From positions 186,001 to 250,000 of the forward strand of contig NIVC01000754.1 in assembly GCA_002269645.1 (NCBI GenBank): a stretch of DNA of 64,000 nt, written 5' to 3'. The stretch's first letter is position 1; each line of letters begins with the position of its first letter. Origin of the DNA: Macrostomum lignano (taxonomy: Eukaryota). The position numbers were made by a program, and so were the translations under genes. Below the pieces are notes generated by a model, which saw only the letters and a list, made by a program, of their open reading frames with translations, ran no database searches and was not told the origin of the DNA. This document shows, piece after piece, positions 28,254 to 55,200 of this stretch.

Positions 28254-31200
28254 CTGACAGACGCAAATTGAGGCAATGAGAGACAAATTGCATGCTGTAG
28301 CTGTGTGTGCTGTAGCTGTGTGTGCTGTTGCTTTGTGTGCTGTTGCTTTGTGTGCTGTAGCTGTGTGTGCTGTAGCTGTGTGTGCTGTTGCTGTGTGTGC
28401 TGTAGCTGTGTGTGCTGTTGCTGTGTGTGCTGTAGCTGTGTGTGCTGTAGCTGTGTGTGCTGTAGCTGTGTGTGCTGTTGCTTTGTGTGCTGTAGCTGTG
28501 TGTGCTGTAGCTGTGTGTGCTGTAGCTGTGTGTGCTGTAGCTGTGTGTGCTATAGCTGTGTGTGCTGTAGCTGTGTGTGCTGTTGCTGTGTGTGCTGTTG
28601 CTTTGTGTGCTGTTGCTTTGTGTGCTGTTGCTTTGTGTGCTGTTGCTTTGTGTGCTGTAGCTGTGTGTGCTGTTGCTTTGTGTGCTGTTGCTGTGTGTGC
28701 TGTTGCTTTGTGTGCTGTAGCTGTGTGTGCTGTAGCTGTGTGTGCTGTTGCTGTGTGTGCTGTTGCTTTGTGTGCTGTAGCTGTGTGTGCTGTAGCTGTG
28801 TGTGCTGTAGCTGTGTGTGCTGTAGCTGTGTGTGCTATAGCTGTGTGTGCTGTAGCTGTGTGTGCTGTTGCTGTGTGTGCTGTTGCTTTGTGTGCTGTTG
28901 CTTTGTGTGCTGTTGCTTTGTGTGCTGTTGCTTTGTGTGCTGTAGCTGTGTATGCTGTTGCTTTGTGTGCTGTAGCTGTGTGTGCTGTAGCTGTGTGCTG
29001 TAGCTGTGTGTGCTGTAGCTGTGTGTGCTGTAGCTGTGTGCTGTAGCTGTGTGTGCTGTAGCTGTGTGCTAAAGGAACTCACGGCAGTGCCAGAGGCTCG
29101 TCGAAGTAAATCTTGCCGTCGTACCTAAATAGGCAGGTGAAACTCAGATGAAAGCCCATGCTCTGTACCTTAGTTCTTTCTTTTGTTAAAATAATTTATG
29201 AAATGGAATTCATAAATACATTCTGCTTTATGGTAAAAGTCCGTAATACAAGCGTATTATCAGAAAAGCAAATTTCAGACGTGGAGTTTAAACTCAACTG
29301 TCACAGCAAGAATGCTTGCTGTTGTCTCATAGCTCGCAGGCAGCTGAACATTAATATTCAACTGGAATCTGCAGTCAAACTGCACTGCAAACTCCCTCAA
29401 TGCAGCTCAGTCAGTGTCTGCTGCCCATTTAAACTACAAAAATATAAAAATTCCCACTCAGAGTAACGGCAGTCAGCTGCTCAATATTCAATCATAAATT
29501 ACAGCATGTTTATCAATGATAAATCAAAGTCAGAGAGACATTCTCAGTCGCCATGGAAACTCACCCACGCAGCAGCTCAGCCAGTTCGTTCCTTCCCTTT
29601 TGTGTGGTCAAATCCAGCGCAGTCCTGCCGCTTCTATCCTTCAGACGCCAATCCGCCCCTGAGTCCAGCAGAAGCCGACCGACTGTGGCGGCGGTGGCGG
29701 GGGGCGCAAAGGCTGCCTCCATGAGTGGCGTCAATTCACGCAGACCTTCCCTGGCATTGGCGGAGGCTCCGGCAGCCAGCAGGGCGGAGGCTGCGGCAAA
29801 ATTGCCAGCCCCGGCTGCCCAGTGCAGGCAACTGTCAGCCACTCTATCCGCACAGGTGGGGTCACCCAGCTGCACCAGCTGCTCCCAAAGAGCCTCATCA
29901 CCGCACGAGCTGTTCTGAGCTGCCCACATCAAAGCGGTCCAACCCCAAGAGTCAGGCAGGTCGCAGTTGCCGCGGGTCGCCGCTCGCCGCAGCCCCGCCG
30001 AGTCGCCCGCCTTGGCCAGCCGCTGCAGTTCCTGTCGATCCGCCTCCTCCTGCAAAGACGAGCGGGAAATTTGAGCACAGCTGCTCAGCTGCAGCCGCAT
30101 CGGCACCGCAGATGCCGCTCACCTGGGCTGTCAGGTCGGAGATCCTTCCATCTGCATTCATAACCAGCCGTATCTCCCTGCAACAGCAAAAATGACCAAC
30201 GAATTAGCAATTTTCTCAAATCCAATAATATGCACGATCGCCAAAATCAAAATTTTAGATGTAAGATAGAATTGTCAGGATAGATTTGTGGTGGTAGCTG
30301 CTAGCTAGAGCTAGCGTTGTTGCACTTTACCCAATCATATCCTCGTTTTGTCTCTGGTAGCAACCAGCTATACGTTCTTAAGCTTTCGCTCTCAGCCTCT
30401 CACTCATGTTGTAATTTCCTATGCTTAAATAAACTCTGTGCTGCTTCAACATTATTGCCAAAGTGCCGACAGCTTCGTTCAAACTACGACAATGGCGTCG
30501 CGGCTTGGCAATCTGGATCTTACAGACACGGTTCATGCATTAACCTGGATTAAGGAATTCAAAGCCTTGGCTCGAACCAAGAAGTGGGAAGATAAAGAAA
30601 CAGAATGACAAATCACGGACAACTTTTTAGAGCTCTGTGGTCTAGCAGCTCTCGAAAAAGTTACTCATCTTGTCGCTCCAAAAGAAGTGGAAGCATACAC
30701 TTTTGCGGAGCTAGAGACTGCCATTACGAACTTTCTGCAACCCCAAAAGCACCTTGTCGTTGCTGAGAGAACTGAATTCTTTACGCTACGTTACGCCCAT
30801 AATGAGCCCATTACGAAGTTCCTTTCTCGCTTCAGGAAGGGGACCACGTACTGCGAGTTCGATGCTCTAAAAACCTGCACCAGCCCGGAAGAGGAAATGG
30901 TACGTCTGATGCTCATCTCTGGCCTGCAGGACCCAGAAGATCAACGACGCCTTCTGGGAGCCATGCAAACGAAAGACTTGAAGATCACCGAAATCGTGGA
31001 TATTGTCAGGACTACCGAAAGTAGAAGGCATGAGGGGGCTTTTGGGACAAAATTTTTCACATCCTCCATAATCCCAGTAAATCCATCCATATTATCCCCG
31101 ACAGAATCAGAAAAAAAGGGGGGTCGCACTCGCTCACAAAACGTCCTCCATAATCCCATTAAATCCATCCATATTATCCCTGACAGAATCAGAGCATTAT

Positions 31201-34200
31201 CCCTGACAGAATCAGAGCATAACAGGTGTCCACTAACACCTGTTATGCTCACTGACACAGACATAATCCACCAACATCCACCCATAGCATCTTCGAAACA
31301 ATCAGAAAATAATCTGCATTCTTCTCCCCACATTCAATCCGAAGCGTTGAAACCAGATCCCTAAAACTTTAAATCCCCTAACCCAGGGTCCTTACCCTTT
31401 GAAAAAAAATTAAATTTTCTCTAAAAATGTTTCCAGTTGTCTCTTCAGGTTCCTATTATACTCAGCCTCATCTATTGTATAAATCCAAGTACCGTTGCAA
31501 ACTAGAATGCAGCGAGTACATGAGAAAATATTGGCCCGGCGTTGATGTCAATGTCCCTAATATTAATCAAGCACTTAAATCTCACTGGTTTGAAAAACAC
31601 GGACTATTCATTAACAATTTTGACAGCTATTATAACTTTGCTGAAGTTATAAGGCAGTTGTAGTAGCCAACTAAAAGGTTGTACCCTGTAGAGTGCAGAC
31701 GCAAGATCTAAAAAATACTGACTAAATCATGTGCAGCATAAAGCGGCTCGTATTTGTAAGCGATAGCTTACTGATAGTAAAGCTATTTGAACATGGTGCG
31801 AATTCCTCACATGGTGGACTAGAAAATGTCGCCATGTGCAAGGGCGTATAAATAGCAGTTCCACTCAGCTGGCTAGAGGTGGAGCCGACCTCGCGTGGCT
31901 ATGACTGACTGACGAAAGCAAAAAAAGCCCAAAACCGGTCTCAGTCTGCCCCGCATGGTTCGATTCCCACTGATAACATGATTTTCACGAACGTTCGTAA
32001 AAATCATGTGCAGCATAAAGCGGCTCTCAGTGGTTACATGATTTTTACGAACTTTCGTAAAAATCATGTGCAGCATAAAGCGGCTCTCAGTGGTTACAAG
32101 TTTTCTCGAACGTTCGTGAAAATCATGTGCAGCATAGAGAAAAAAAGCTTGCCCAGCTCAAGGATTCCTAAACTAGCTCAAAGGATCCCTCGCCTAACTT
32201 CACAAACGCCCATTTAGTTCCTTGTTTAAACCCCCAGCCTTCTCAACCCCCAGCTCTTTCAGCAGAACTCCTAGTTTTTTCCTTGGCGCGTGCAGTACAA
32301 AGCCCACCCCGCCCTCTCTCCCCGTACACCAACCCCCGACGCACACCCCCAACCCCAGTTTTGTCTTACCAAAAATAACCGCCTTGACTAATTTCCTAGC
32401 AATAGACTCGCGAAATCCGCTTGAAGCCCCTATATTGTCTAGTCTCCTAAGCATTTCTTTGTCCCAACGATTCTTCTCCTCAGGAAAATCTCTATATTTA
32501 ACATCGTGCCACATGCAGACAGAGTCTAGCTCGTTCACAGGCTCATGCCCAGGATTTGGATTATTGTTTTTATCTAACTGTATTTCAAGTGGATTCAAAG
32601 GCCCGCAATATTTATAGCCGGGAAGTGTCCAGCCTTTGTTTGGATGAGGAAGCTTTTCTATCAGTCCATGTGAATCTATTTTACCACCAGAGCGTTGCAT
32701 TATTTTATTTAAAATTTTCTTTTTAAAAAAATGACAGATCAGAAACTTAAAAAAACTCTACTACAGCGACAAAGGATTCTTTGTAGGAAAAAATGCAGTC
32801 ACCAAACTCACAGAACTAAGTAAGGAACCAAAAGCTAAAGTAGAAAAGTGGCTCTCTAAGCAAGCAGTCTACCAAGTCTATTTCCCACCAGTAAAATTTG
32901 AAAGGCCCCATTTCAGTATTTATAAACCTAATGAAGCGCACCAAGCAGACCTTCTGTTTCTCCCCAATGACTCGGGCTACAAGTATGCTCTCACAATTAC
33001 AGACGTTGCCTCCAGATATAAGGAAGCGAGACCGCTTAAGACGAAGAAGTCAGAAGCAGTTGCAGCCGCCCTTCAAGATATTTATAAAAACTCTCCGCTC
33101 ACATACCCCCAAATCTTTATGACCGACCCGGGTAAAGAATTCTATGGGGCAGTCAAATCCCTTATGGAAAAGAAAAATACAAAAATTCGCTATGGCAGAA
33201 CAAACTTGCACAGAGACCAAGCGTACGTTGAGAGATTCAATCTAACTCTAGCCAAGAGGCTATTCACTAAGCAGTCAGCTGAAGAGCTGAAACTAAAAAG
33301 TGGTCAGTACTATACCAAGTGAACAGACCGGCTCCCCACTGTTATAGAGCAACTGAACAATGAAGTCACGCGCATGACTGGATTGAAACCATCCCATGCA
33401 ATTAAACAAGACACTGTCAAACTTAAGGCAACTCATAGAACAGACAACAACACGACAACCCCACACATCACACGCAACACAAAACACACCTCGAACTACC
33501 CTAAGCTTCCAGCAGTTGAATCACCATACATACTGACAAACTCTGAGGTTCTACGCTTTTTATATCTACCTGGAGAGCTAGAGAAGGACACTAAAAGAAG
33601 AGCTACAGATCCATACTTCAGCCTTGATGTACATAAAATAGACAGACATTTTACCTCCGACTCCAGTGACTATTTCTTTTTATCTCAAGCCTTTAACCCT
33701 AAATTCCCCACACGGTCATTCACTAGAGCTGAACTCCTAGTGATACCAGCTGACACAGAAATTAATTAAAATATTAAAATAAAAAAATGACAAAGATTGA
33801 AACCAGAACCATCAATAAACTCAATAAAATCATTGAATCAAAGAAACCAGGTCTTATATCAATAAAAGGTGTCAAAGTTAAGGTTGATCACACACAGCAA
33901 ATAGTTCAATGTAATGAGCAAAGACACAGCATCACAGATGAAAAGTCAGGAGGAATCCTACCATTAGCAGCTCTTATTCCAATCATTGCAGGCGCTGTAA
34001 GTGCCGCAGGTGGTGTAGCTGGAGGTGTAGCAACTGCTGTTAAAGCTGGGAATGATAGAGCCCACCAGCTGGGATTGCAAAAGATTGCAAGAGATAAAGG
34101 TATAACAATTAAGGCAGGAGAGGGCTGCCCGGATTTTGATGATCGTGATGATTGTGATGATTGTGAGCATGAAAATTATATAAGCAAGTCTGACATTGTC

Positions 34201-37200
34201 AAAGCCATCATGACACTGCACAATGCTGGGTTTACAATAATGCGCATGTGATGAGGTTTAAAACCCCACTTTATCCAGCTTCATAAACCTAACGCTACTT
34301 ATAGGATGTAGAAACAGTTCAACTTTTCTATCAGGGTGGTAACCCTCAAAAAAATTTTTATTTTAGAGAAAAAAAATGCCAAAAGCCAATCCAGCAAAAT
34401 ATTTGGTCAACAAATATTTTTCAAAAGGCGTCTTATTTCAAGACAAAAGTAATTTACTAAGAGAAGCATGTAAACAAAAGTTTAACACCGACCCTGGTCA
34501 CCTGGGAAGCTATGAGAAACAGTTGGAAATCATCAATCAATTAGAATCCAACCAGTATGCGCCTATACAAAATCCTGCAAAGGAACACCAAGAGAGGAGT
34601 CGCAACTTAGTTAACAAATACGAAACTCTCACTGGTGAAAAAGCAAAGTACCCACAAAATAAGCAGGAACAAGAGAAATTAGAGCAATTAATCCATTTAA
34701 AAGAGTCGGAGCTTGCCATTGAAGAGATTAATTTTGCACAGAGGAAGTTTACAGAACATTACATAGAGTACACAATCCCAATAAACGGCACCAACCAAAT
34801 TAACGACACCAACGGCACTACCGCAAACATCTACGACTATAAAGACAGCATCCAATCAGTTGTTGATCACACACTCAAAACACGCAAGACCTTTAAACTA
34901 CAGATATCATTCAAGATTGCGTTTTATATGCCTGCAAAACCCACTGAGCATCTCGAGTATTACATGACAACAAAGGCAAAGCCATTCACCCCAACAGACA
35001 CACTGGATCCTTTCCTTCAAGATGTCACTAAGAAAATTGAAGCGTTTACATCCAGAGGTTCCGGATGGGTCGTGGGAGGGATTCAAAGAGCGACTGTCAT
35101 GGTCATGAAATATGATCCACTTAAAGCCTCCTCTTATATAGAGCTCCCGCATAAGCTAGCCGGCAAAAAAAAGCTTGGATAAATGTTAAAAATAAAGACA
35201 ATTGCTGTGCTCTACGGGCAGTTCTTTCTGCACTTCTTCATGATAGTGTCCTTCACCACCCCGAAAGAACCTCAAATTATCAAAATTATTTCAACTACTA
35301 TCTCATCGAATGCGAAAAGAAGGGAATCAGGTTTGACAAAGGAGGCTTGGCGATCTCTCAGATCCCAAAGCTAGAAGAAGTGTTTAATAACAAAATTAGA
35401 ATCACAGTCTTTGAGTGGAGTGAAAAAACTGAGAAAGTTCAACCGGTCAGATGTAGCAAAGACGTTTTAGATCCTGAGGGGAAAAGGCGGACTGAAGTGG
35501 ATCTTCTAGTGATTGGTAATTTACTAGAGGAGGCTCACTATGTTTGGATTAAAGATCTTTCAAGACTCATTCACAAGCAGTTGAATAATCATCACGAGGC
35601 TGTTGCCATCTGCCGCTTGTGCCTTAAGCATTACAGTGGACCTGAACGCTTTGAAAAACTAGCAGAGCATGAATTATCATGCGAGGATCACCCAACAAAC
35701 TGCTCTCTTCCTTCAGCTGAAGAGAAGTATCTCCGGTTTAAGAACTATCATAAGATGGAGAAGCTCCCATTTGTTGTATATGCTGATTTCGAATGCTCAA
35801 TCATTCCAGAAACTCAAAAACAAACTCAAACTCAAAAACATGTCCCCAATTCAGTAGCATATGCCTTTATTAATACAAAAGGACTTGTTGAGTATAATTA
35901 TTTCTTTGGAGAGCAGTGTTAGAGTTGCAAAGAGTAATTAGCACCCTTCAACCTGTTCCAATAAGTATGTCTGAGGAGGATGAAAGCAATTTCCTATCAG
36001 CAACTCATTGTCACATCTGCAAGAAACAGTTAACTTGCACTAATATTAAAAACCCTACCGTTAGGGACCACTGCCACTTTACTGGGAAATTTAGAGGCGC
36101 CGCGCATAACACCTGTAATCTAAAGCTAAAATCGAACATTCATGATCTAACGATATTTTGTCACAACGCAAAGAACTATGACATGCATTTAATAGTTGAA
36201 AAAATCGGCATGATTCCAGACATACACCTTGATTGCATCGCAGAGAACAAGGAGAAGTTTAAGTGTGTTGATATTAAACAGGATAATTCGGGTACAGGTA
36301 AAATAAGACTGAAGGATTCATATCAATTTCTAGCTGCCAGTCTAGACGAACTAAGCAAGAATCTAAAAGATGAACAATGTACATATACAAATGTTTGCAA
36401 GTAAAATTAACAACAGTGATGAATCATTTAAACTTTTAAGAAAGAAAGGCTTCTACCCCTATGAAATATTACTGGTATCACGTATTTGAAGAAGGTTTAC
36501 CACCACAGGAGAAGTTCTTTTCAAAGCTAACAGACTCTGGAATCTCTGACAAAGACTATGAGCACGCGAAGCATGTCTATAATTACTTTAATTGTCAAAA
36601 CTTCTTCCAGTATCACCTGCTTTACCTCTTCACAGATGTGTTTCTGCTGGCTGATGTGTTTGAAACCTTCAGATACACCTGGTACACAGCATATGGCCTC
36701 GATCCAGCACATTATGTGTCTCTGCCTGCCACTAGCTGGGAATCTTTGCTTAAAATGAAATGGGATCAAGATCCAGATTGGTACATTGAACTTCTTACAG
36801 ACATTGACATGTACAATTTTGTCGAATCGTCAAAGCGAGGGGGATCTCAATTTGCGTTAACAGGTATGCAAAAGCAAACAATCCCTACATTGAATCTTAC
36901 AATAAGGAGCAGCCCTCAAACTACATTACTTACTTGGACGCTAATAATCTCTACGGTGGGCGATGAGTCAAGATCTTCCAGTTAGAGATTTTCGATGGCT
37001 ACCCTCATCAGAACTAAAGTGGGACTTTTCATTGGCTGCCATTTATGAGGTTGATGTTTACATTCCACCAGAGCTTCACGACTATTTCTCTGACTTTCCA
37101 CCCTTCCCAGAGAACATCAAGTGCCCGAAAATAATCGAAACTCCCAATGGAACTTGGCACCTGTCAGGAACAGAAAAAGAACATACAGAGAAACTAACAC

Positions 37201-40200
37201 AGAATCTAAACAACAAGACACGTTACAAAATCCATTACAAACTGCTTCAGTATTTTATCTCACTTGGTTGCAGGGTCACCAAAGTTCACAGGGCTCTTAC
37301 ATTTACAGAGGAAGCGTGGATGAAACCCTACATTGATAAGAACACCCAGTTTAGGACCAAAGCAACCAACGACTTTGACAAGAACCTCTTTAAGTTGGCC
37401 AACAACTCTGTCTATGGCAAGACTCTTGAGAATGAGCGGAAAAGAACAAACCTGAAACTTGTTACCTCATCAGAGCCTGCTGTTATTCAGGCAAATATGT
37501 CAAAGCCAACATTCAAAGAACTCCATATCTTTAATAGCTACTTAGGTGTGATCATATTTTACAAAACCAAGGTGACGCTGCGCAAGCCGATCTATACAGG
37601 TGTCACTGTTCTCGACGAATCAAAACGTCTGATGTACCAGTTCTTCTATGGCATGAAGCAGCAGTACAAGGATAAAATGAAACTCTTGTACACTGACACA
37701 GACAGTTTTATTATGGACATTCAAACAGAAGACATTTATCAGGACATGCTGCAGCAAAAAGATTTGTTTGACTTGTCTGAGTATGATGAATCTTGCAGGA
37801 CACTGAATGGTGATCAAGTTTTTGACGCTACTAACAAGAAAGTGATTGGGAAAATGAAGGACGAGATTGCTGGTGACATAATCACTGAATTCATTGGTTG
37901 AGAGCAAAGTCCTATTTTGTAAAATGTGAGTCGTCAGACCCAATTAAAAAATCAAAGGGAATCCCGAAACGTGTGGTTAGGAAGGAAATTAATGAAGCTG
38001 AATGCAGAGACGCCTTGAATTGCAACAAAAAGACATCTCATGAGTTCTCAAAGCTACAATCTAAAAACCATATTATTCACACAATTCAGCAGAAGAAGAT
38101 TGGACTGTCAGGTGCAGATAACAAGAGATTCATTTGTGATGACAATATCAACAGTCTACCGTTCGGGCACTGGAGATTCGGCTTAGGAGGTTGGGTTTAG
38201 GAGGTGGAGATTAGGAGATTAGGAGGTTAGGTTGAGGTTTAAGAGACTGTTTAATAAAACTCATAAAAATGACGACAAATAACTTTCTTGAAGATTTGGC
38301 TAACGAACTGGAAATCCCAAACTTTAGAGGAATATTTATGAGGGACACTCTGCCTGATTTTCCTCTAAGAAAGGAATGCGGCATCATGAACTTTGACACC
38401 ACTGATAAGCCAGGATCTCATTGGGTTTGTTGGGTGATTGATCCCGATCGCAAGCACAAGTGTTATTACTTCGATAGCTATGGGACGGCAGTACCAGAAG
38501 AGCTAAGAAATTATATGAAGGGGAAAAATAAAAAAAAATGTATCACTCAGACTTTATTCTTCAAGGTCTTAGCAGTGATATTTTCGGTGAGCTGCGCATG
38601 ACTGTTTTGTATGCAATGACCAAAACACGAAAGACCTACAAGGAAATTATTCTTGGCTGTGTTTCATAGGGGTTCATTGTGCATTTCTCGTCGTCCTTCT
38701 TGCCGACTTTCTTTCCGCATAATGTTAAAGAACTTTCTCGAGTTCATTTCTCAGCTGACTCATGTCATCAGTACCGACCATGTTCAAGTTCATTCGAATT
38801 GATTGTTCATAAAGATCCTGAATGGTTTTGAACTCATCCTCTGAAATGAACTTATCCTCGATTGCCCTTGAAATGTACCCTATGATTGAAGTGTGCACCC
38901 CTTTCTCTTTTACTTGCTTCTCCTGTAGCTGCTTTAGTTTTTTTCGCCTGTTTCGCGCTACTGCTCCAGTAATTGCTGAAATAAGTCCACATTCAGCACC
39001 TACTGAACCAAGTGGAATTGCGATTGGGGCTGTGATGACTGGCAACACTGAGACAGCTGCAGCAGACCCAGTTAGAACAGACACAGATCCTAGAATCATA
39101 TTGCTGTAGTCGAAAAATTTACAGTGACTATTATAGCGCTTAATTTTCTTTGTGTTGTGGAAAATATTTTTTTCAAGATCATCGCGCATTTTTTGAATCT
39201 CCACCAGTCGAAACTGTTGAGAGTTACAAGTAATGACGGGGTAGAGTTTTTGCTGCTCATATTGGGGTGCATTCATATTCGGTGCCAGGTTTTGTGTGTT
39301 CGAATTCGGTGCCATTGGGTTTGGTGCTGTCGGTATTTTAGGTTCAGACTGATCGTATAAAGAATTTTGTTGGGCCATTTTTTTCTCTAGAAAAAATAAA
39401 AAATTATAAAACTATCCGGTTGAAATATCTGTTATTTTCTCTTTGGTAATTTCATCTGCAGTAATGATCGAACGAGCAGTAGATTCTGCTTCATCAATAG
39501 CAATATCACGAAGATTGAGTGCTCTCTCCAGACGATTAAGCCTCCTTAGTGTTTTACCCGAAGAGCTATAAATTCCATTTAGATAGCTACTGTGTGATAC
39601 ATCGTTTCTCTTCAATGCTTCAAGTTTTTCTTTTATTCTGTCATGCAACGCTGTTGACTGGTTCATGAACTCTTCTAAATTATTCACTTTAGCTGTGTTT
39701 GTGAAAACTCCTCCTTCAAGAATGCGCATCTGTCTAGCAGTAGAGTTTCTCAGAAGATTAACTGTCGATGCTAACCCATTGATTTGCGTGACTACCGAAG
39801 TTATTTCTGACCTTAGTTCATTAAAGCTGTGATCAAACTGCACATAAATCTTATCACTTTCAAACTTCTGCCTAGCTACTTTAAGCCTGAGATCTTCCAT
39901 GTTTATCTGTAGCTGGTGCATGGAGCGCTCTAATTGTTTCAGTCTGTTTTTATTCAGTTTGATCTCTGGGATCTCTTCATCAGTGTTAATGTAGCGCTTG
40001 TCAAGGAAGGAAGTTGTGAGAGTGCTGTTGCCTGTAGTTGACTCACCTGCAAAATTAATAGACATTTTTTTAAATAAAAAATTAAAGTAAAATTCTTTTC
40101 TCCTTATTAATCATGACAAACTGATAGGGTTGGTTCCACTTTTCATAGCATATGTTAACAAATTCCTCCTGTGATATTGTTCTGTTAGAGTTCTTAGCTG

Positions 40201-43200
40201 GATATGTAATGTGAGCTGGGGCAATGACCTCATTATAAAATCGTTTCAGTCGATCCTGTGGTATGGTTGGGAAAAGGAGAATCAAATTACAGTTACCTCT
40301 AATTGTTTTATTTGACAGTTCAAACCAGTTTTGGGCAATGTAAATAACATTGCAGTTATTGTGTCTACCCCGGGTGAAATAATTTTCTATCTGTTTCTGG
40401 GGACCGGTCATGCAGTCATCAAAGACAATCAGGTGCTTTCTCCCCTTTTCTAGTTCATCAGGTTGAGGTAAGAGTTTAGTTTTAGGATCTATCTGTGGAT
40501 CTCCATAAGTGAAAACTTTAATGTTTTGCCATTTTTCATTGTCTGGGATGTGCTTTGCGTATTCACTGGCTACAACTTCCGGGTTGCTGTTGAGGTCTTT
40601 TTGATGTCTAAAACATTGAATAATATCTTCCTTGTTGAGTTTGTTCTGTAGGCCCGCTACTAGCATTTTATACTCATCTTGATACAGAGTGGGTGAATAG
40701 ATATGTAGTGTGTCATAATCGAGGAATCCAGGTCTGAGGAGCATGTTAAAAACTCTGAAGGTTTTCCCTGACCCAGATGAGCCAACAACAATGCATCGGA
40801 AGTGCCCTGGAATTATCTCGTTGTGAGCAAATTTTATCTGATTGCGTGTCCAGTGGGGATGAAAGTCGTTTGTGAAGTCCATTTTTTTATGTAAAAAAAC
40901 TTTTTCTTTTTAAACTAGTGTATTTAAGACGCGTGTGTCTCTTTGCGGGATGTGTGTGTCTTTTTTTCTGGTTGTGTGTGTCTTTTTTCGACTAGTCCTA
41001 CATCCGACTAGTCCTACACCCTCACACCTCTTTTACCGTCAGGGTGCACCAAATTAGTCAAATTTAAAACCGCCTCCTTTCTTATATTCAGCTCTCGTCT
41101 TTGCGTAGATGGCTGGATCGACACTATCTGCACTCGGTGCAAGGGGTTGAATATCTGGTATTGATTTCCGGGTTTCATGAACCGTATCTTTAATCTTTTT
41201 GGCTGCTGTGACTACACTGCCGGCCGCTTCGGCAACGTTCTTGATGTTCTCTTTGTTCTCTCCAATGACCTTAAAAATCTTGGCCCCCTGAGCGATCAAA
41301 TCGGCAAGGCCATTCCCAGAGCATTCTTTTCTTGGATAGTGGCCTGCAGGGAAAAGTCCAGATCCGCGTTTAATGAGATTAAGTTCCTCTTTGTCATAGT
41401 ATTTGTCAATGTCTTTTTCGAAAATAATTGGCATCTTTTTAAATAGAAATTATTTTTTGTTAAACCGTAAAAGCAAAAGTTCTCTTGCTCTTTTATCGAT
41501 ATATTTTCTCTCAAGCATTTTGTCTAGGATATGAACGAACTCTTTTCTATTCTCATCTTTCATTCCAGTCTTTGCCGCTCCTAGAAGAACAGCTAACCGC
41601 TTGTAGAATTCAGGCATGCCTTTTCCGGAAGAGCTTGGAGGTGATTTGAATGATTGGTCAGAGGAGGAACTGTCATGTGGCGCTTGTCTTTGTTGAGGTG
41701 TGAATACTCTGTTATTGATTCGCTTCATTCGTTCTGGGGAGAGCCGCTCTAATTGTCGCCAAGTATCAGGGTTTGTATCTTTGTACTGCGAAACAAGAAT
41801 CGGTTCTGCGGCGTCAAGTTGATCAAGTACTTGTTCAACCTGGGTTTTTTGTTGCTGTGGAGGTGGTGGTTGCTGTGGTTGTTGCTGTTGTTGTGGTTGC
41901 TGCTGTTGTTGTGGTTGCTGCTGTTGTTGTGGTTGCTGCTGTTGTTGTTGTTCTAGATATTTTATGACTTCCAACTGATCTGGCAAACCAAACCATTGCT
42001 TAAAGTATTTGTATTTTCTAAACCTGTTCAAGTCAATCCTGTTTTCATGTAAAACTTTCAAAACACCGTTGTTCTTGAGAATGTCTATGTCCCTCTCTAA
42101 AGCGAAGGTAACAAGATCTTTGTAATTTTTTAGCTGCTTTCCAGACGTTTTCTCTAGATTTTTAGTCATGTAATCAAGTAAAGTTTTAGTGTAGGGGATT
42201 CTTTTAGTTTCTGCACCTTTATTGATTGAAATATTTTCATTTGTCACTTCAATGTTGTAATCCACCGGTTCCTTGGTAATTTCTTTTCGCCAGGCGCTAA
42301 TTCCAAAAATATATTTTCCATCAACCATTGCGGGGCCAAAAAAGTTATCCGTCACATTCATCTGCACCGGTTGTGCTTCTGGTTGTCCTGGTTCCTGAGC
42401 CTGTGGTTGTCCTGGTGAAGATGGGATTTTACCCAATGTGTTTTGCAACTGGCTCTCTTGAATATCATCAACTGCTTCCTTCACAGTGTCGATGTTTTTC
42501 TTCGCTTCTGTGTATCCGAGTTTATGAAACTCTGTGGCTGCTTGGACAAACTCATTGTAGGATTGTTGCTCCTTATTTATTAGCCCGGTAACTCGTTTCT
42601 CTGCTTGTGCTAGCTTCTCCAATTCAGATATCTGCTGTGTACTTTTTCGCTTTATTTCTTATTTTATTTTATTTTTAGTTAAAAAATGAACGACCCACTG
42701 ACACCAGTTTTCTACAAAATTAACAAGCCTATTTTGAGTGATGATAGCACAATCAAAGCTGTATTTGGAAGTCATTGAGCCAAAGACTGCACTAAAAGCG
42801 GATTATCTCAAGGCAATAGAGAAGGACATTGATGTTGCATACACGGCCTACATGTGTCGAGATGAGCGAAACGAAACTAGAACAAACATCTGCATTAAAG
42901 AGGGATCATGCAGCAATCCACGGTATATTATTATTAACATGAGAAACCCAAATAGCATTATACGCTACATGCATGGAGACGTGCGGTCCATTCAGCATGA
43001 AATCAGTGATAATCTTTACCCTGCACTGCCACAAAATGGAGATTTCACTCAGAACAAGATTAGCAAATTTTACAGCGAGTTAGTCGACTTGGCTGTGAAA
43101 GAGAACAATGGAATTGCTATCACTGCTCTTCAATATGGAACTCTATATCCGATGTTTGGCGCTGATGTGTCTGCCAGACAAATGCCTACTGATAACAGCC

Positions 43201-46200
43201 CTGTGAATATCGTGACTAACATTGAAAGGACTGCCGCAACACCCGTGGACTTGTACATTATCTATGCATTTGAGAGGAAGGTGAAGCTTAACATGATCAA
43301 CAATTCATCCAGTAAAGTTTAAATTTTTTAGGACAAAAAATGGAAGCCATAGCCGAAAGACTAAACAACATTGTTTCACACTCTAAGGAGAGCATTCCTA
43401 TTACAATAACTGGGCGAATTAATGACTCAAACGGGATATTTGTTGAAAAATTAGAGCAGGCGATTCGCCTGGATCCAGGCGCTAATTACCATGTCTATCT
43501 TAACGACTTCACTGGTTGGTCAAACGTTCCTAATGTGACGGCAGCAAATAATTAGTTTTATTACAAATGGAAAGGTGCAGCAGCAGACCCTGTGGTATTC
43601 CATGTGAGCACGCAAAGTGTGGATACCTACAATAACTTTCTAGAAAATGTCTTTACTAAGAGAGGCCATTTTCAGACACCTGATGCGAGTAAGCCAGAGA
43701 AGAAACTGTTCCCTGTCAAACTAACCTATGATCTCACTGTAATGAGAGTGGTCATGCAAGTTCACAAAGATGCGGAGGTTGAGTTTAAAGATGACACTTG
43801 GTATAGGGAACTGGGATTCGAGAAGAAAGTTTATAAGGCAGAATCCGCGGCGCGGACCGCCACTCAAGCATCGGGGACTGTTAGAATGGTCCGGGAAAGT
43901 GTAAGCGGTTTGTTCTTAGCACCCAATATTGCAGACATTGTAAAGGGTTTGAATATTCTAATCAGAAGCAATCTCAGTCTTGATTGGGTATTTAAGGGAA
44001 AGCGAACGAATATTTTGTACAACATCTCCAACTCTGTTGCTGGAGGACAGATGGTGGTAGAGAAACCAAATCCAGTGAAAATAGTTGTATTGAGTAATAA
44101 GGAGATTCACGAGATTGTGCTACAGTTTGAGACTGAAGATGGGGTGGGTGTTGATTTCAACGGTGAAGAGTTTGTATTGACGTTAATCATTGAGAGAATG
44201 TAAGAAATCACAACTGCCTTATAACTTCTGCAAAGTTATAGTAGCTGTCGTAATCTTTTACGTAGGTTACTCCATACTTATGAAACTAGTGTCTTTGGAG
44301 AGCTAGATTAATATTAGGGACATTGATATCAATGCTGGGCCAATATTTTCTCATGTATTCGCTGCATTCAAGTTTGCATTGGTACTTGGATTTGTACAAT
44401 GGATGAGGCTGAGTATAATAAGAACCTGGAGAGACAACTGAAAACATTTTTATTGAGAATTTAGATTTTTTTCAAAGGGTGAGGACCCGGCGTTGATGAT
44501 TTAAAGTCTTAGGGATCTGGTAGCACGTTGCGGATTGAATGTGGGGAGAAGAATGCAGATTATTTTCTGATTATTTCGAAGATGCTATGGGTGGATGTCA
44601 GTGGATGATGTAGGACACCTGTTATGCTCTGATTCTGTCGTGGAGGAAGGAGGATAGGTTAGGAGGATTATGTTCGAAGTTTTGTAAGCGAGTAGGACAC
44701 CTGTTATGCTCTGATTCAGGGATAATATGGATGGATTTAATGGGATTATGTTCGAAGTTTTCGGAGCAAGTAGGACACTTGTTATGCTCTGATTCTGTCA
44801 GGGATAATATGGATGGATTTAATGGGAACCTGAAGAGACAACTGGAAACATTTTTAGAGAAAATTTAATTTTTTTTCAAAGGGTAAGGACCCTGGGTTAG
44901 GGGATTTAAAGTTTTAGGGATCTGGTTTCAACGCTTCGGATTGAATGTGGGGAGAAGAATGCAGATTATTTTCTGATTGTTTCGAAGATGCTATGGGTGG
45001 ATGTTGGTGGATTATGTCTGTGTCAGTGAGCATAACAGGTGTTAGTGGACACCTGTTATGCTCTGATTCTGTCAGGGATAATGCTCTGATTCTGTCAGGG
45101 ATAATATGGATGGATTTAATGGGATTATGGAGGACGTTTTGTGAGCGAGTGCGACCCCCCTTTTTTTCTGATTCTGTCGGGGATAATATGGATGGATTTA
45201 CTGGGATTATGGAGGATGTGAAAAATTTTGTCCCAAAAGCCCTCTCATGCCTTCTACTATCGAACAAGTGACGAAGTTCGTAGACAGCAGGGATCTTCAA
45301 AACGCTGACACAGAGCCTACCCAAGAAGGACACTCCATCAACTTCGCAGGGAAGGGAGCTCGGCAGCATCGAGGCGGTAGCGTGACCATGTCCTATGAAC
45401 GGCATATAAGCGACTGCAAGTTTTGTGGCAGATCTTACCCAGCTGGCAAATGCCCGGCTTACGGCAAGATATGCAACAAATGCAACAAGCGCAACCACTT
45501 TGGATCTGTGTGCCGCTCCAGTGGCGTCAAACAGGTCAACCATATGGACACGAAACTTGTAACCTCAGACTCCGACGCCTCTGAGGTACTCCATCTGACA
45601 GATGTAGATCTCATCCATGCTGTTTCGGTAACTACAGAAACTGTGCTGATCAACGGTGTCGCTATTCCGATGCAGATCGACACCGGAGCTTCAGTTTCAG
45701 TGCTTTCTAGCCACCTATGGGAATCGCTGCAATGCCCTAAATTGGACAAGTATCATCGGCGACTCGAGGCAAATGATGGCCACATTCTGAAGACATTGGG
45801 AAAGCTGTCTACCACTGTCAAGACGCGCGGTCGAATTCATTCAGCTGAGCTGATGGTGGTTTCATCTTCGAAGACATTCGGCCTGCTAGGATGCGATCTT
45901 CTAGATGGCGACGCCGTATTTCACGCAGCCTACACTGCCACAGCGGCGCCTGCCAATGAACCACTGCCGACCATCAAGGGCATCAAAGCACAATGTACGT
46001 CAGTGGGAAAATCAAGTCGGATTCCTATACAATCCTCTCGATTGAGCACCTATTCTCCAAGCTCAAAAACGCAAAAAAGTTGCGGATAGAAAACAGATAC
46101 GAGTATAATAAATTCAGAATTATTTAAGAAACTAAGATGGCAAATTTGGCAAATTTGCCTATTTGGCAAATAGCTTTCGATGAATCTGCGGAGGAGCTAT

Positions 46201-52200: not shown

Positions 52201-55200
52201 AAACCACTAGCCAGCAGAATTCGCATGTGTGGATCCAGGACCCTTTCAATAAAGAGTGGAGAGAAGGGTTGCTGCGAGAAGCGGTGGGAGACCAGCTACG
52301 GAGAGTGCAGGATCATCAGGGACGAGAACTAACCGTTCACCGAGATCATGTCAAGGAGAGAGCTGGATCTGGTGAACTGGCAGCTGATGACCTGACCGAT
52401 CAAGCGGCAAGTCCAAATAAACTGGAGAGACGGTACCCGGTGCGAATTCGGAGAGAACCTGAGAGGTACACATATACTTAAAGGGAAGAGGGATGGTGTG
52501 TCGTGAACTTTAAGTTGATGAATATGTTTTATAATCTATGGATGAAAGCCATATAAATTAAATTTGTTAGTTTATAAGAGCTGCGAGCTAGTGGAAAACA
52601 GAAAAAAGGGAAAAGCTGGCTGTAGGAAATATATATCTGTAGAATGAGCATCGGCTCAATTGTATGAACTAAAGATTGGACTTGGTTATTCAACAACAAC
52701 GACACAACACCAGGCATGCACTCAGTTAAGACCTCGTCTACAAAAAACTCGGGACACTTGGCCACCTGCCACCGCTCTATTTCAAAGAGTGCACATGGAC
52801 TGGGCTTTTTTACCAGCCGTCAGCAGCATTCTCATCGTTGTTTATGCCTACTCGGGCTGGATAGAAGCTTTCCCCACAAAGGCCAGATCAGCAGACAGCG
52901 TCATCAACTCGCAGCGAACGGTTCTTACTCGCTTTGGCGTTCCGGAGCTGGTTGTTTCGGACAACGCAGCGGAGTTCACCTCAGCTCCACTATTGGCCTG
53001 GTTCGAAAAGAACGTTGCTTGGAGAGATAATCTCCATATTTCCCTCAATCTAACGGTGCAGCTGAGCGAGCCGTTCAGACTATCAAGAAGGCCTTGCAGG
53101 CATGGACCCAGCGTCTAACACATGGCAGCTTTATCGCTTTTTTGCAGAAGGCTCTGCTACATCATCGCGATTCTTCAACTTCACGCGGACGAACTCCTGC
53201 CGAGCTCGTGCTAGGACGGCGTCTTGATGTTCCAGTGGTCTCCACCTCCCAGCAGGGCGACCCGGTGCAGTTCAAGGCCAACGGCGACACCACGAGCTCT
53301 CGAGCTGAGTTCCTGATGTCGCAAGGACGCAACACCTCCTGGCTGCTGACGGGCGCCAAACTACACCTGGCTTCAAATAATCAATTCGGCCCGCTGGCTC
53401 CTGCCTCTGAAGCCGATGAGGAAGAAGAGGAAGTTCACCAACAACCACAAACTAATATGCCTGAGATTCCCCCAAAGATCGCTCCGACAAGAAGTAGCAC
53501 TAGGGTGAGGAATCCCCCAAATCGCCTTGTGTCATAGGCTCAGACTTAGTAAACCGTGATCGCGTTATTTCACTGACTTTGCAAAGTTTACTAGCTAGTT
53601 CTTAAAGTTTGTTTGTTTGACTGTCTTGCGGACGTCGTTATCCATCGTCTTCCTTCGCAGACGGGGACATGTGATAGTAGCTGCTAGCTAGAGCTAGCGT
53701 TTTTGCACTTTACCCAATTGTTCAATGCATGATTTGGCGGTTGCACGAAGAAGTACGAAAGCCACAGTGGGCCGAAGCGATGCTATTTATTCAATATTTT
53801 AGTCGACTACTGCATTGCGTGGGGTGGGGGTCGTAAATGTACACTTTGCTTACTACGAGTACAGATAAGGGGCGAAGAGTTGGAGAGAGAAAACCGGCTG
53901 ACGTACGGAGCCGGAAAATTGGGGTGGGCGCTCTATAGCAAATCAATGGCTCACATCAATCATATCCTCGATACGAGCGTATGTCTCTGGTAGCAACCAG
54001 CTGTACGTTCTTAAGCTTTCGTTCTCAGCCTCTCATGTTGTAATTTCCTATGCTTGAATAAACTCTGTGCTGCTTTAACATTATTGCCAAAGTGAGACAG
54101 CTTCGTTCAAACCACGAAAAAATTTACTAAACAGAAATTTCTAATTATCTGAGCTGCTCACAGAATTTTTTTTGAGGCAGGGGGTTGTTTGCACCCTGGC
54201 GCACTTTAAGCGACATAGGCACACAACCGGCGAGAGGCATTACTGCCCATTCCGCCGACTCCCCTGAGCAGGCATACAAGCGTGCGGATACGTACGCAGG
54301 CACACACTCACACAGGAGTGTACAGCGGCCCTAACTTTATTAATTGTTAGGCATGTACACTTCACTGCGCCTTGGGGGGTTGGCTCTCAAGGCCGTTAAT
54401 TGCACGAGCAGAGCCAAGCCGAGATTCCAATTCAGCCCCAAATTAATGTGACTGCACATGGAATCGAGTCTGGGTCGCTGGCACACCAGAGCAGCTGCGC
54501 TACCGCTGGGCTACAGATAGTGTCCAAGAGGACTGCAGCAGCTCTGCAACAATCAGCATTGGCGAGAGCGCATCCGACTTCTCACACGCAGCTCATTTTC
54601 CATTTCTGCAGCATGAGTTTCCTTCCATCTCAAAATGTTTCACAAAGCACTCACGCACAGCCTCCCAGTTCTCCATCTGCTGCTCAACCCACACACTCCC
54701 ACTGCACACCGAGGCCCTACAGCTTCCATTATCGACTGAGATCAACCGGCACCCCATTGGCTGGGAGGCAGCCAGCCAATCACAGCTCTCGCCCATCAAG
54801 CAGTATGACAGAGACAAGCTCAGCTGACTGGCTCTGATTGGCTGGCCTGAGACTGCAGCTCTGGCCACCATAGCCAGCCGAATGCTGCAAAACTTGATGG
54901 ACACAGCAGCGAACTGCCCACTCACCGCTCGATGTAGCTGGCCAGCTCTGAGTGGCCGCTGAGCCTCGCCAGGTCCGACGCCGTCCGACCCTCGCGTTCC
55001 TCCAGTCCGAGCAGCCGAGTCCTCTTCGAGTTTCCGTGCTTCTCGCACTCATTGAACCTTTCCTGCCTGAGCAGGTGCAGCAGGTGCTTGGCGCATTTCC
55101 AGCTTCCAGTCCGCGCCGCCTCCATCAGCGGAGTGGCGCCATTGTCGTTCCGCAGCCACTTCGCATCGAACGACAGCAGCATCAGCAGCCGCAGGTGGTC

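Follow-up and report, generated by a model that had tools for sequence, protein, structure and literature searches.

How does a transposable element come to end in two versions of its own terminal repeat, one set inside the other? The question is posed by an element in a 64,000-nucleotide stretch of Macrostomum lignano DNA (assembly GCA_002269645.1, contig NIVC01000754.1, positions 186,001 to 250,000; "the window" below, from whose first letter all positions are counted). The element spans 31020-45258 (14,239 bp, or 14.2 kb) and carries Maverick/Polinton termini, AGTAG at the start and CTACT at the end. It is bordered by a 6-bp target-site duplication, ACCGAA on the left (31014-31019) and ATCGAA on the right (45259-45264, both plus strand), identical at five of six positions. 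The insertion site lies inside the gag gene of a gypsy element, whose protease and reverse transcriptase are located downstream; both flanks read as a single gag frame across the insertion. Having AG...CT ends, 434-bp inverted arms and a target duplication within the 5-8 bp range, the element is a Maverick/Polinton by the features listed in PMC10748475 and PMC8097293. More gypsy-like pieces, 87-94% identical to the host gypsy element, are found downstream at 53670-54120 and 52494-52709, and an ankyrin-repeat host ORF lies upstream of it on the minus strand (29561-30100).

The gene content of the element is as follows. A phospholipase A2-like ORF (32200-32700, minus strand; Pfam PF08398, E 1.2e-13) precedes a retroviral-like integrase (32735-33769, plus strand; Pfam rve, E 1.3e-9, above the cut-off), which is interrupted by an in-frame stop at 33320-33322, and an ORF matching adenovirus protein X, the mu core protein (33787-34251; Pfam E 4.9e-7, above the cut-off). 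A gene for protein-primed DNA polymerase B (34376-38197, plus strand) matches, at E<=1e-20, 671 longer proteins, of which many carry PF03175; the best identity among the 120 relatives listed is 47%, and the named relatives are mostly from marine invertebrates. An adenovirus-like protease (38236-38601, plus strand) is suggested by a PF00770 match whose E value of 0.004-0.005 falls below the Pfam cut-off, and an A32-like packaging ATPase (40082-40882, minus strand; PF04665, E 2.3e-6) lies above it. Two probable capsid genes complete the right half on the plus strand, a major one (42686-43322) assigned from its position and from a likeness of motifs, and a minor one (43340-44203) suggested by position and size. 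Neither had a Pfam match, and a search of viral contigs with the capsid piece gave 13 pattern matches, none of which was confirmed as a relative. Just inside the left terminal repeat, a 60-bp unit with internal palindromes is present in 2.7 copies (31965-32139), with a 26-bp copy upstream at 31724-31749; the right side has no counterpart.

This Maverick copy is defective. Besides the integrase stop, the polymerase gene contains seven frame switches, the minor capsid gene has an in-frame stop (43553-43555) that is almost never present in contigs of the family, and the repeat-borne ORF near the right end is also interrupted (see below). The major capsid gene probably suffered an internal deletion at 42757-42759, as judged from contigs with loose ends on either side; these ends overlap by three letters, a second microhomology join in the same copy. 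The polymerase shows frame switches and no consistent in-frame stop, whereas the interval 42760-44200 shows stops and no frame switch, a contrast that could reflect either local assembly error or separate histories of the two halves. Frame switches unaccompanied by consistent in-frame stops are typical of long-read consensus errors, and those of the polymerase may be of this kind; there is no clear tie to homopolymers, a run of eight being found at only one of the seven sites. Taken as a whole, the element is an ordinary broken Maverick copy.

The left terminal repeat (31020-31661, plus strand, about 640 bp; variant A) consists of the AGTAG terminus, subterminal units of about 80 bp, a unique part and a 78-aa ORF. 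The right end contains two related sequences, both on the minus strand. The outer arm (44825-45258), which ends in CTACT, is a copy of the left terminus: over 434 bp, 31020-31453 and 45258-44825 agree at 433 positions, with a single mismatch (31035/45243) and no indel. The inner repeat (44210-44827; variant B) comprises three subterminal units and lacks its tip. Against 31072-31661 of the left end it scores 77.5% with gaps in blastn (E 2e-142); in the part 44210-44610, 344 of 398 aligned bases match the left copy, leaving 54 substitutions (86% alike). The subterminal units differ between the inner copy and the left end in both number and type, and the missing tip amounts to 52-134 bp, depending on the repeat unit to which the end of the copy is matched. 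These similarities are far beyond chance. They agree in large part with a preliminary description of the locus, which had reported an inverted copy of the 78-aa ORF inside the right end (found at 44447-44208, minus strand), a near-perfect 434-bp copy of the left terminus and, between them, a diverged truncated repeat at 44448-44824, recovered here as the longer inner copy with its tip missing. The outer arms, and not the inner copy, contain a 36-bp imperfect palindrome (31215-31250 and 45028-45063) made of a doubled inverted piece of a subterminal unit; a 23-bp tandem duplication at 31173-31220 is likewise specific to them.

The two right-hand sequences meet at a junction that is unique in the window. 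The letters exactly common to both sides are GGA (44825-44827, plus strand), one fewer than the GGGA reported initially; if the comparison is extended, seven of eight positions agree. Since random joins of these two sequences share at least three letters in 6.8% of cases, a three-letter microhomology is only weak evidence for a mechanism. The doubled right end is a feature of the assembly as it stands, and it is probably real in the genome.

Other members of the family were surveyed in contigs from four public runs (X1, X2, X8 and X14) of four studies, one of which may be the source of the assembly; 24 runs were listed, of which 20, from eight studies, contain part of the stretch, and there was no RNA run among those listed. 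The statements below refer to the entries listed, which for variants are 40 of 204, for indels 12 of 21, for joints 15 of 32, for loose ends 24 of 710 and for contig pieces 32 of 8708. The preliminary description had regarded the inner repeat as an old terminal repeat that had diverged. Decay in place is not supported as the source of its 14% divergence and was rejected on three grounds: the left and inner copies of the ORF differ with dS 0.31 and dN 0.13, a dN/dS of about 0.4 (Fisher P 0.024); the substitutions are patchy, with 21 of the 54 falling within 56 bp (P 1e-4); and the left letter is the majority letter at only 8 of the 54 differing places among the 40 variant rows listed (of 204), a count that is no more than suggestive. 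The difference looks like family polymorphism for the most part.

Contigs of the same four runs contain the ends matching the inner repeat that the preliminary description had suggested looking for. Among the loose ends listed, those of five X2 contigs fall at 44210, the boundary of the family repeat, and nine contigs in X1 and four in X14 end at 44771. Among the joints listed, five in X1 lead from inner-type units at 44767/44771 directly into the terminal unit at 45155-45162; two of these recur in X2 and none in X8 or X14. The contigs making these connections are short and of low depth. Most of the 15 joints listed (of 32) lie within the terminal repeat. Summed depth in X1 is about 1e5 in the element versus about 1.5e3 in the gypsy flank, figures that are not copy numbers. 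At least two end variants therefore circulate in a very high-copy family in which rearranged ends are common and locally undoubled inner-type ends exist, and the proposal that the right end is a recombinant of two related Polintons holds to the extent that it is a composite of two terminal-repeat variants. In other family copies the terminal repeats are internally deleted or re-ordered between 44470 and 45162, with skips of 299 and 689 bp, and a 307-bp go-back is present in all four runs. Depth ratios among inner repeat, outer arm and ORF were compared by eye as a gauge of family-wide doubling and dropped, the runs disagreeing and short contigs fitting two places. Terminal-repeat motifs had no match in viral contigs and none in metagenome contigs.

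The ORF borne by the repeats is open at the left end (31427-31663, plus strand, 78 aa); its inner inverted copy (44208-44447, minus strand) has 79 codons with an in-frame stop at codon 54, where the letter of the window occurs only in X1, at a depth of about 256 of 187360. Its nearest Atlas clusters are RNase T2 (score 0.93, 188 shared features, a recognition below the reliable level of 2300), and the three PDB matches (E 0.19-0.21) all belong to the RNase T2 family, being RNase T2 and Actibind, a fungal T2 RNase. Residues 25-66 of the ORF align weakly with the second active-site segment of RNase T2 (PF00445; YWP...H...KHG; E about 0.2) and may correspond to it; unlike RNase T2, the ORF has about one-third of the length and shows no first active-site segment, nor was one seen by eye in the upstream frames. 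PF00445 itself gave no match at E<=10, the only Pfam match being DUF6339 (E 0.096). A word search returned no candidate, two HMMER matches to repetitive proteins were judged spurious, and a single-sequence structure model (pLDDT 48) led to one meaningless match in an uninformative fold search. Judging by these similarities, we would give a derivation from RNase T2 about even odds; RNase activity in a protein lacking the first segment seems unlikely. A literature search on Polintons and RNase T2 returned a single review.

The relative ages of arms and interior were compared by means of rare letters, positions at which 90% or more of the contig depth disagrees with the window in each of the four runs. 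Of the rows listed, 31 lie within the element; among these, seven such letters fall in the body, seven in the inner repeat and none in the outer arm. At the interior rate, about six differences would be expected between the arms and one is observed (P 0.019 at the 90% cut-off; 0.0065 at 80% and 0.078 at 97%), which makes the arms appear younger than the interior, in line with the earlier impression of a fresh outer copy. Contigs drop rare variants, a caveat to any count of this kind. None of the four runs gives any depth to the window's letter at 43048, 43082 or 44082, and some of the rare letters may therefore be assembly errors. The mismatch in the arms and that in the target duplication both lie within the outer 22 bp, and the inner 418 bp are free of mismatches (P 0.0024 for a pattern noticed post hoc). 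A caution follows for dating such elements: near-identical arms can give a Maverick copy a younger look than its interior.

What joined the two variants? The explanation that we put forward, tentatively and with a probability of about 0.42, is that two family variants were combined into a chimeric right end by chromosomal double-strand-break repair, closed by a microhomology join. The element would have been broken close to this end, and repair synthesis would have followed, copied from a homologous template; synthesis would then have stopped without in-register annealing, and the ends would have been joined at a microhomology, by aborted synthesis-dependent strand annealing (SDSA) or by gap filling with alternative end joining. 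Repair templates would be plentiful because the family is very high-copy. The defects of this copy, the three-letter overlap at its capsid deletion, the contrast in rare letters between arms and interior and the frequency of end variants in the family also speak for this reading. Both the outer ends and the target duplication are retained, as SDSA and gap filling would leave them. Precedents can be found in PMC8951532, where aborted SDSA completed by alternative end joining was measured in Drosophila at a transposon gap of 14 kb, and in PMC8277862, where gap filling with a median microhomology of 2 bp accounts for most single-copy captures in animal TIR transposons. Two routes can be imagined. 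By the first, a variant-A insertion would have been patched from an older variant-B copy elsewhere, making the inner part the newcomer and the outer arm the original, which inverts the order of old and new first proposed; for the lesions of the left half, this route has to invoke either a long patch or assembly errors. By the second, a broken variant-B end would have primed on the element's own left arm, copied it and then been joined again to a short terminal stub. The clustering of both terminal mismatches in the outer 22 bp fits this second route, which presupposes an element whose ends were unlike from the outset. By either route the doubled end is a scar without function.

The geometry of the junction bears directly on the mechanism. 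The two sequences are joined 300-382 bp out of register, so that 300-382 bp are duplicated. The inner copy ends in 44 nt that, when inverted and in register, match 31154-31197 perfectly, with a duplex energy of -53.5 kcal/mol; in the register actually used, only 19 of 44 positions match (-8.5 kcal/mol). Panhandle-type repair would be expected to restore an end as an in-register copy of the other terminus, replacing the 52-134 bp that are missing and free of duplication, and the join departs from this on both counts. Simple panhandle repair does not predict a join that is out of register despite a perfect 44-bp in-register partner, and the suggestion that the right end was restored by panhandle copying is not supported by this comparison. 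The observed join looks like an end-joining or microhomology-primed product. The unused 44-bp match is awkward for SDSA as well.

The alternative that survives best, though we consider it doubtful, has the chimera form on a free linear molecule that later integrated with proteins supplied in trans. Either a polymerase starting from a variant-A terminus would have switched out of register to a variant-B template, or a truncated variant-B end would have been capped by a copy of the left end. Arms identical at 433 of 434 positions and a 6-bp target duplication fit a single recent integration of an element whose interior was already damaged, and exchange between Polintons is reported in PMC10748475 and 10.64898/2026.10.13.758929. 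Panhandles, the popular and indeed standard model for restoring terminal homology, would also favor it; according to PMC11886824, however, direct evidence for such structures is still lacking, and they predict in-register copying, for which the perfect 44-bp register was available. In X1 the rare letters of this copy have a depth of about 200-300 versus 1e5, with no sign of amplification, and the mismatch in the target duplication suggests some age. The preliminary description read the doubled end as a trace of extrachromosomal, adenovirus-like replication. Nothing places the event outside the chromosome: repair of an integrated copy yields identical anatomy with the target duplication retained, and from a single copy, chromosomal and extrachromosomal events are indistinguishable. 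A more elaborate form of the idea, in which an out-of-register switch between sub-families on a free Maverick was followed by replication and integration at several sites, the family being one with an RNase T2-derived gene in its terminal repeats as well, we regard as unlikely; if true, extrachromosomal recombination and the renewal of ends in an animal Maverick would have left a direct footprint in sequence.

An assembly error, by which correct flanks and arms were combined with the interior of another copy abutted out of register, is also unlikely. None of the 32 contig pieces listed (of 8708) spans the junction, the best run contains only 0.61 of the words sampled from 43300-45258, and the polymerase frame switches resemble consensus errors. 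Yet the window contains no N, the gypsy reading frame and the target duplication correspond on the two sides of the element, and the arms, 13 kb apart, agree without an indel. Moreover, the inner copy does exist as DNA, given that the window's letter at 44441 is found at low depth in every one of the four runs and that at 44287 in X1; a merge based on overlap would presumably have been made in register. That short-read polishing had homogenised the arms also seemed unlikely, rare letters deeper inside the element apparently having survived.

Slightly harder to sustain is a stable sub-family layout, in which the matched arm was shortened to 434 bp by an ancient out-of-register duplication, after which the inner part diverged from the left end by drift, and in which many copies have the doubled end. 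In its favor, the 14% divergence together with the dN/dS of about 0.4 would mean that both ORF copies were long under selection, and minority letters at 44214-44225 are common to both copies. Against it, the X1 and X2 joints and the loose ends at 44771 put inner-type units straight into the terminal unit, and the patchy divergence fits mosaic sub-families better than steady drift. Insertion of a variant-B element into the right arm of a variant-A element, followed by body-body recombination that removed the middle, finds precedent in the nesting recorded for this class (10.64898/2026.07.28.741278) and is compatible with the retained target duplication, but it needs a third event to remove the 52-134-bp tip of B along with its target duplication and would make B the younger part when B has more rare letters, which renders it very improbable.

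As a single scar the doubled end is of little consequence, rearranged ends being expected in a high-copy and mostly broken family. If the junction recurred at independent insertions, it would constitute rare direct evidence of the free linear phase assumed for animal Mavericks, and the family would allow end repair to be studied from sequence alone.

Adenovirus mutants with embedded or extra terminal repeats are known, and panhandle repair of inverted terminal repeats was reportedly described for adenovirus and PRD1 by Wang in 1991 and Savilahti in 1993. Our literature search, mostly of non-subscription papers, did not find the older adenovirus papers on embedded repeats. The likeness to these replicons, as PMC11886824 discusses them, is that a protein-primed system has one end restored almost exactly from the other; the present case differs in a register shift of 300-382 bp at the join and in an element that is both integrated and defective.

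With the animal Maverick/Polintons of PMC8097293 and PMC10748475 the element shares its size of 14.2 kb, its protein-primed polymerase, integrase, ATPase and protease, an AGT-type terminus, a 6-bp target duplication and terminal inverted repeats inside the known range of 100-1500 bp. Its defective state is also common, 96% of vertebrate loci being defective according to PMC8097293. It differs from them in the doubled right end with two repeat variants and in a polymerase at most 47% identical to the 120 proteins listed; no account of a doubled Maverick end turned up in the literature searched, mostly non-subscription papers without supplements. Mosaicism and nesting are reported for the class (PMC10748475, 10.64898/2026.10.13.758929 and 10.64898/2026.07.28.741278), as are genes within Polinton terminal repeats (10.1101/2025.02.07.637071). 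In C. elegans eri-6/7, too, Polinton terminal repeats are duplicated, partial or re-oriented in chromosomes, and the inversions there may, its authors propose, have been caused by homologous recombination involving the Polintons on either side or their terminal repeats (10.1101/2024.01.15.575659). There, however, host genes were rearranged, whereas here the change is confined to one element within a gypsy copy.

Seen beside these systems, the doubled end appears to behave like known repair scars. As in aborted SDSA and the gap filling of TIR transposons (PMC8951532 and PMC8277862), what is probably templated sequence lies inside intact ends and is closed by a join at which a few letters are shared. 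The Pack-TIRs of PMC8277862 are described as having microhomology of one to a few bp (median 2 bp), as mostly single-copy and as arising independently of transposition. Unlike such cases, in which host sequence is captured, the template here would have been the end of a sister element or the element's own left arm.
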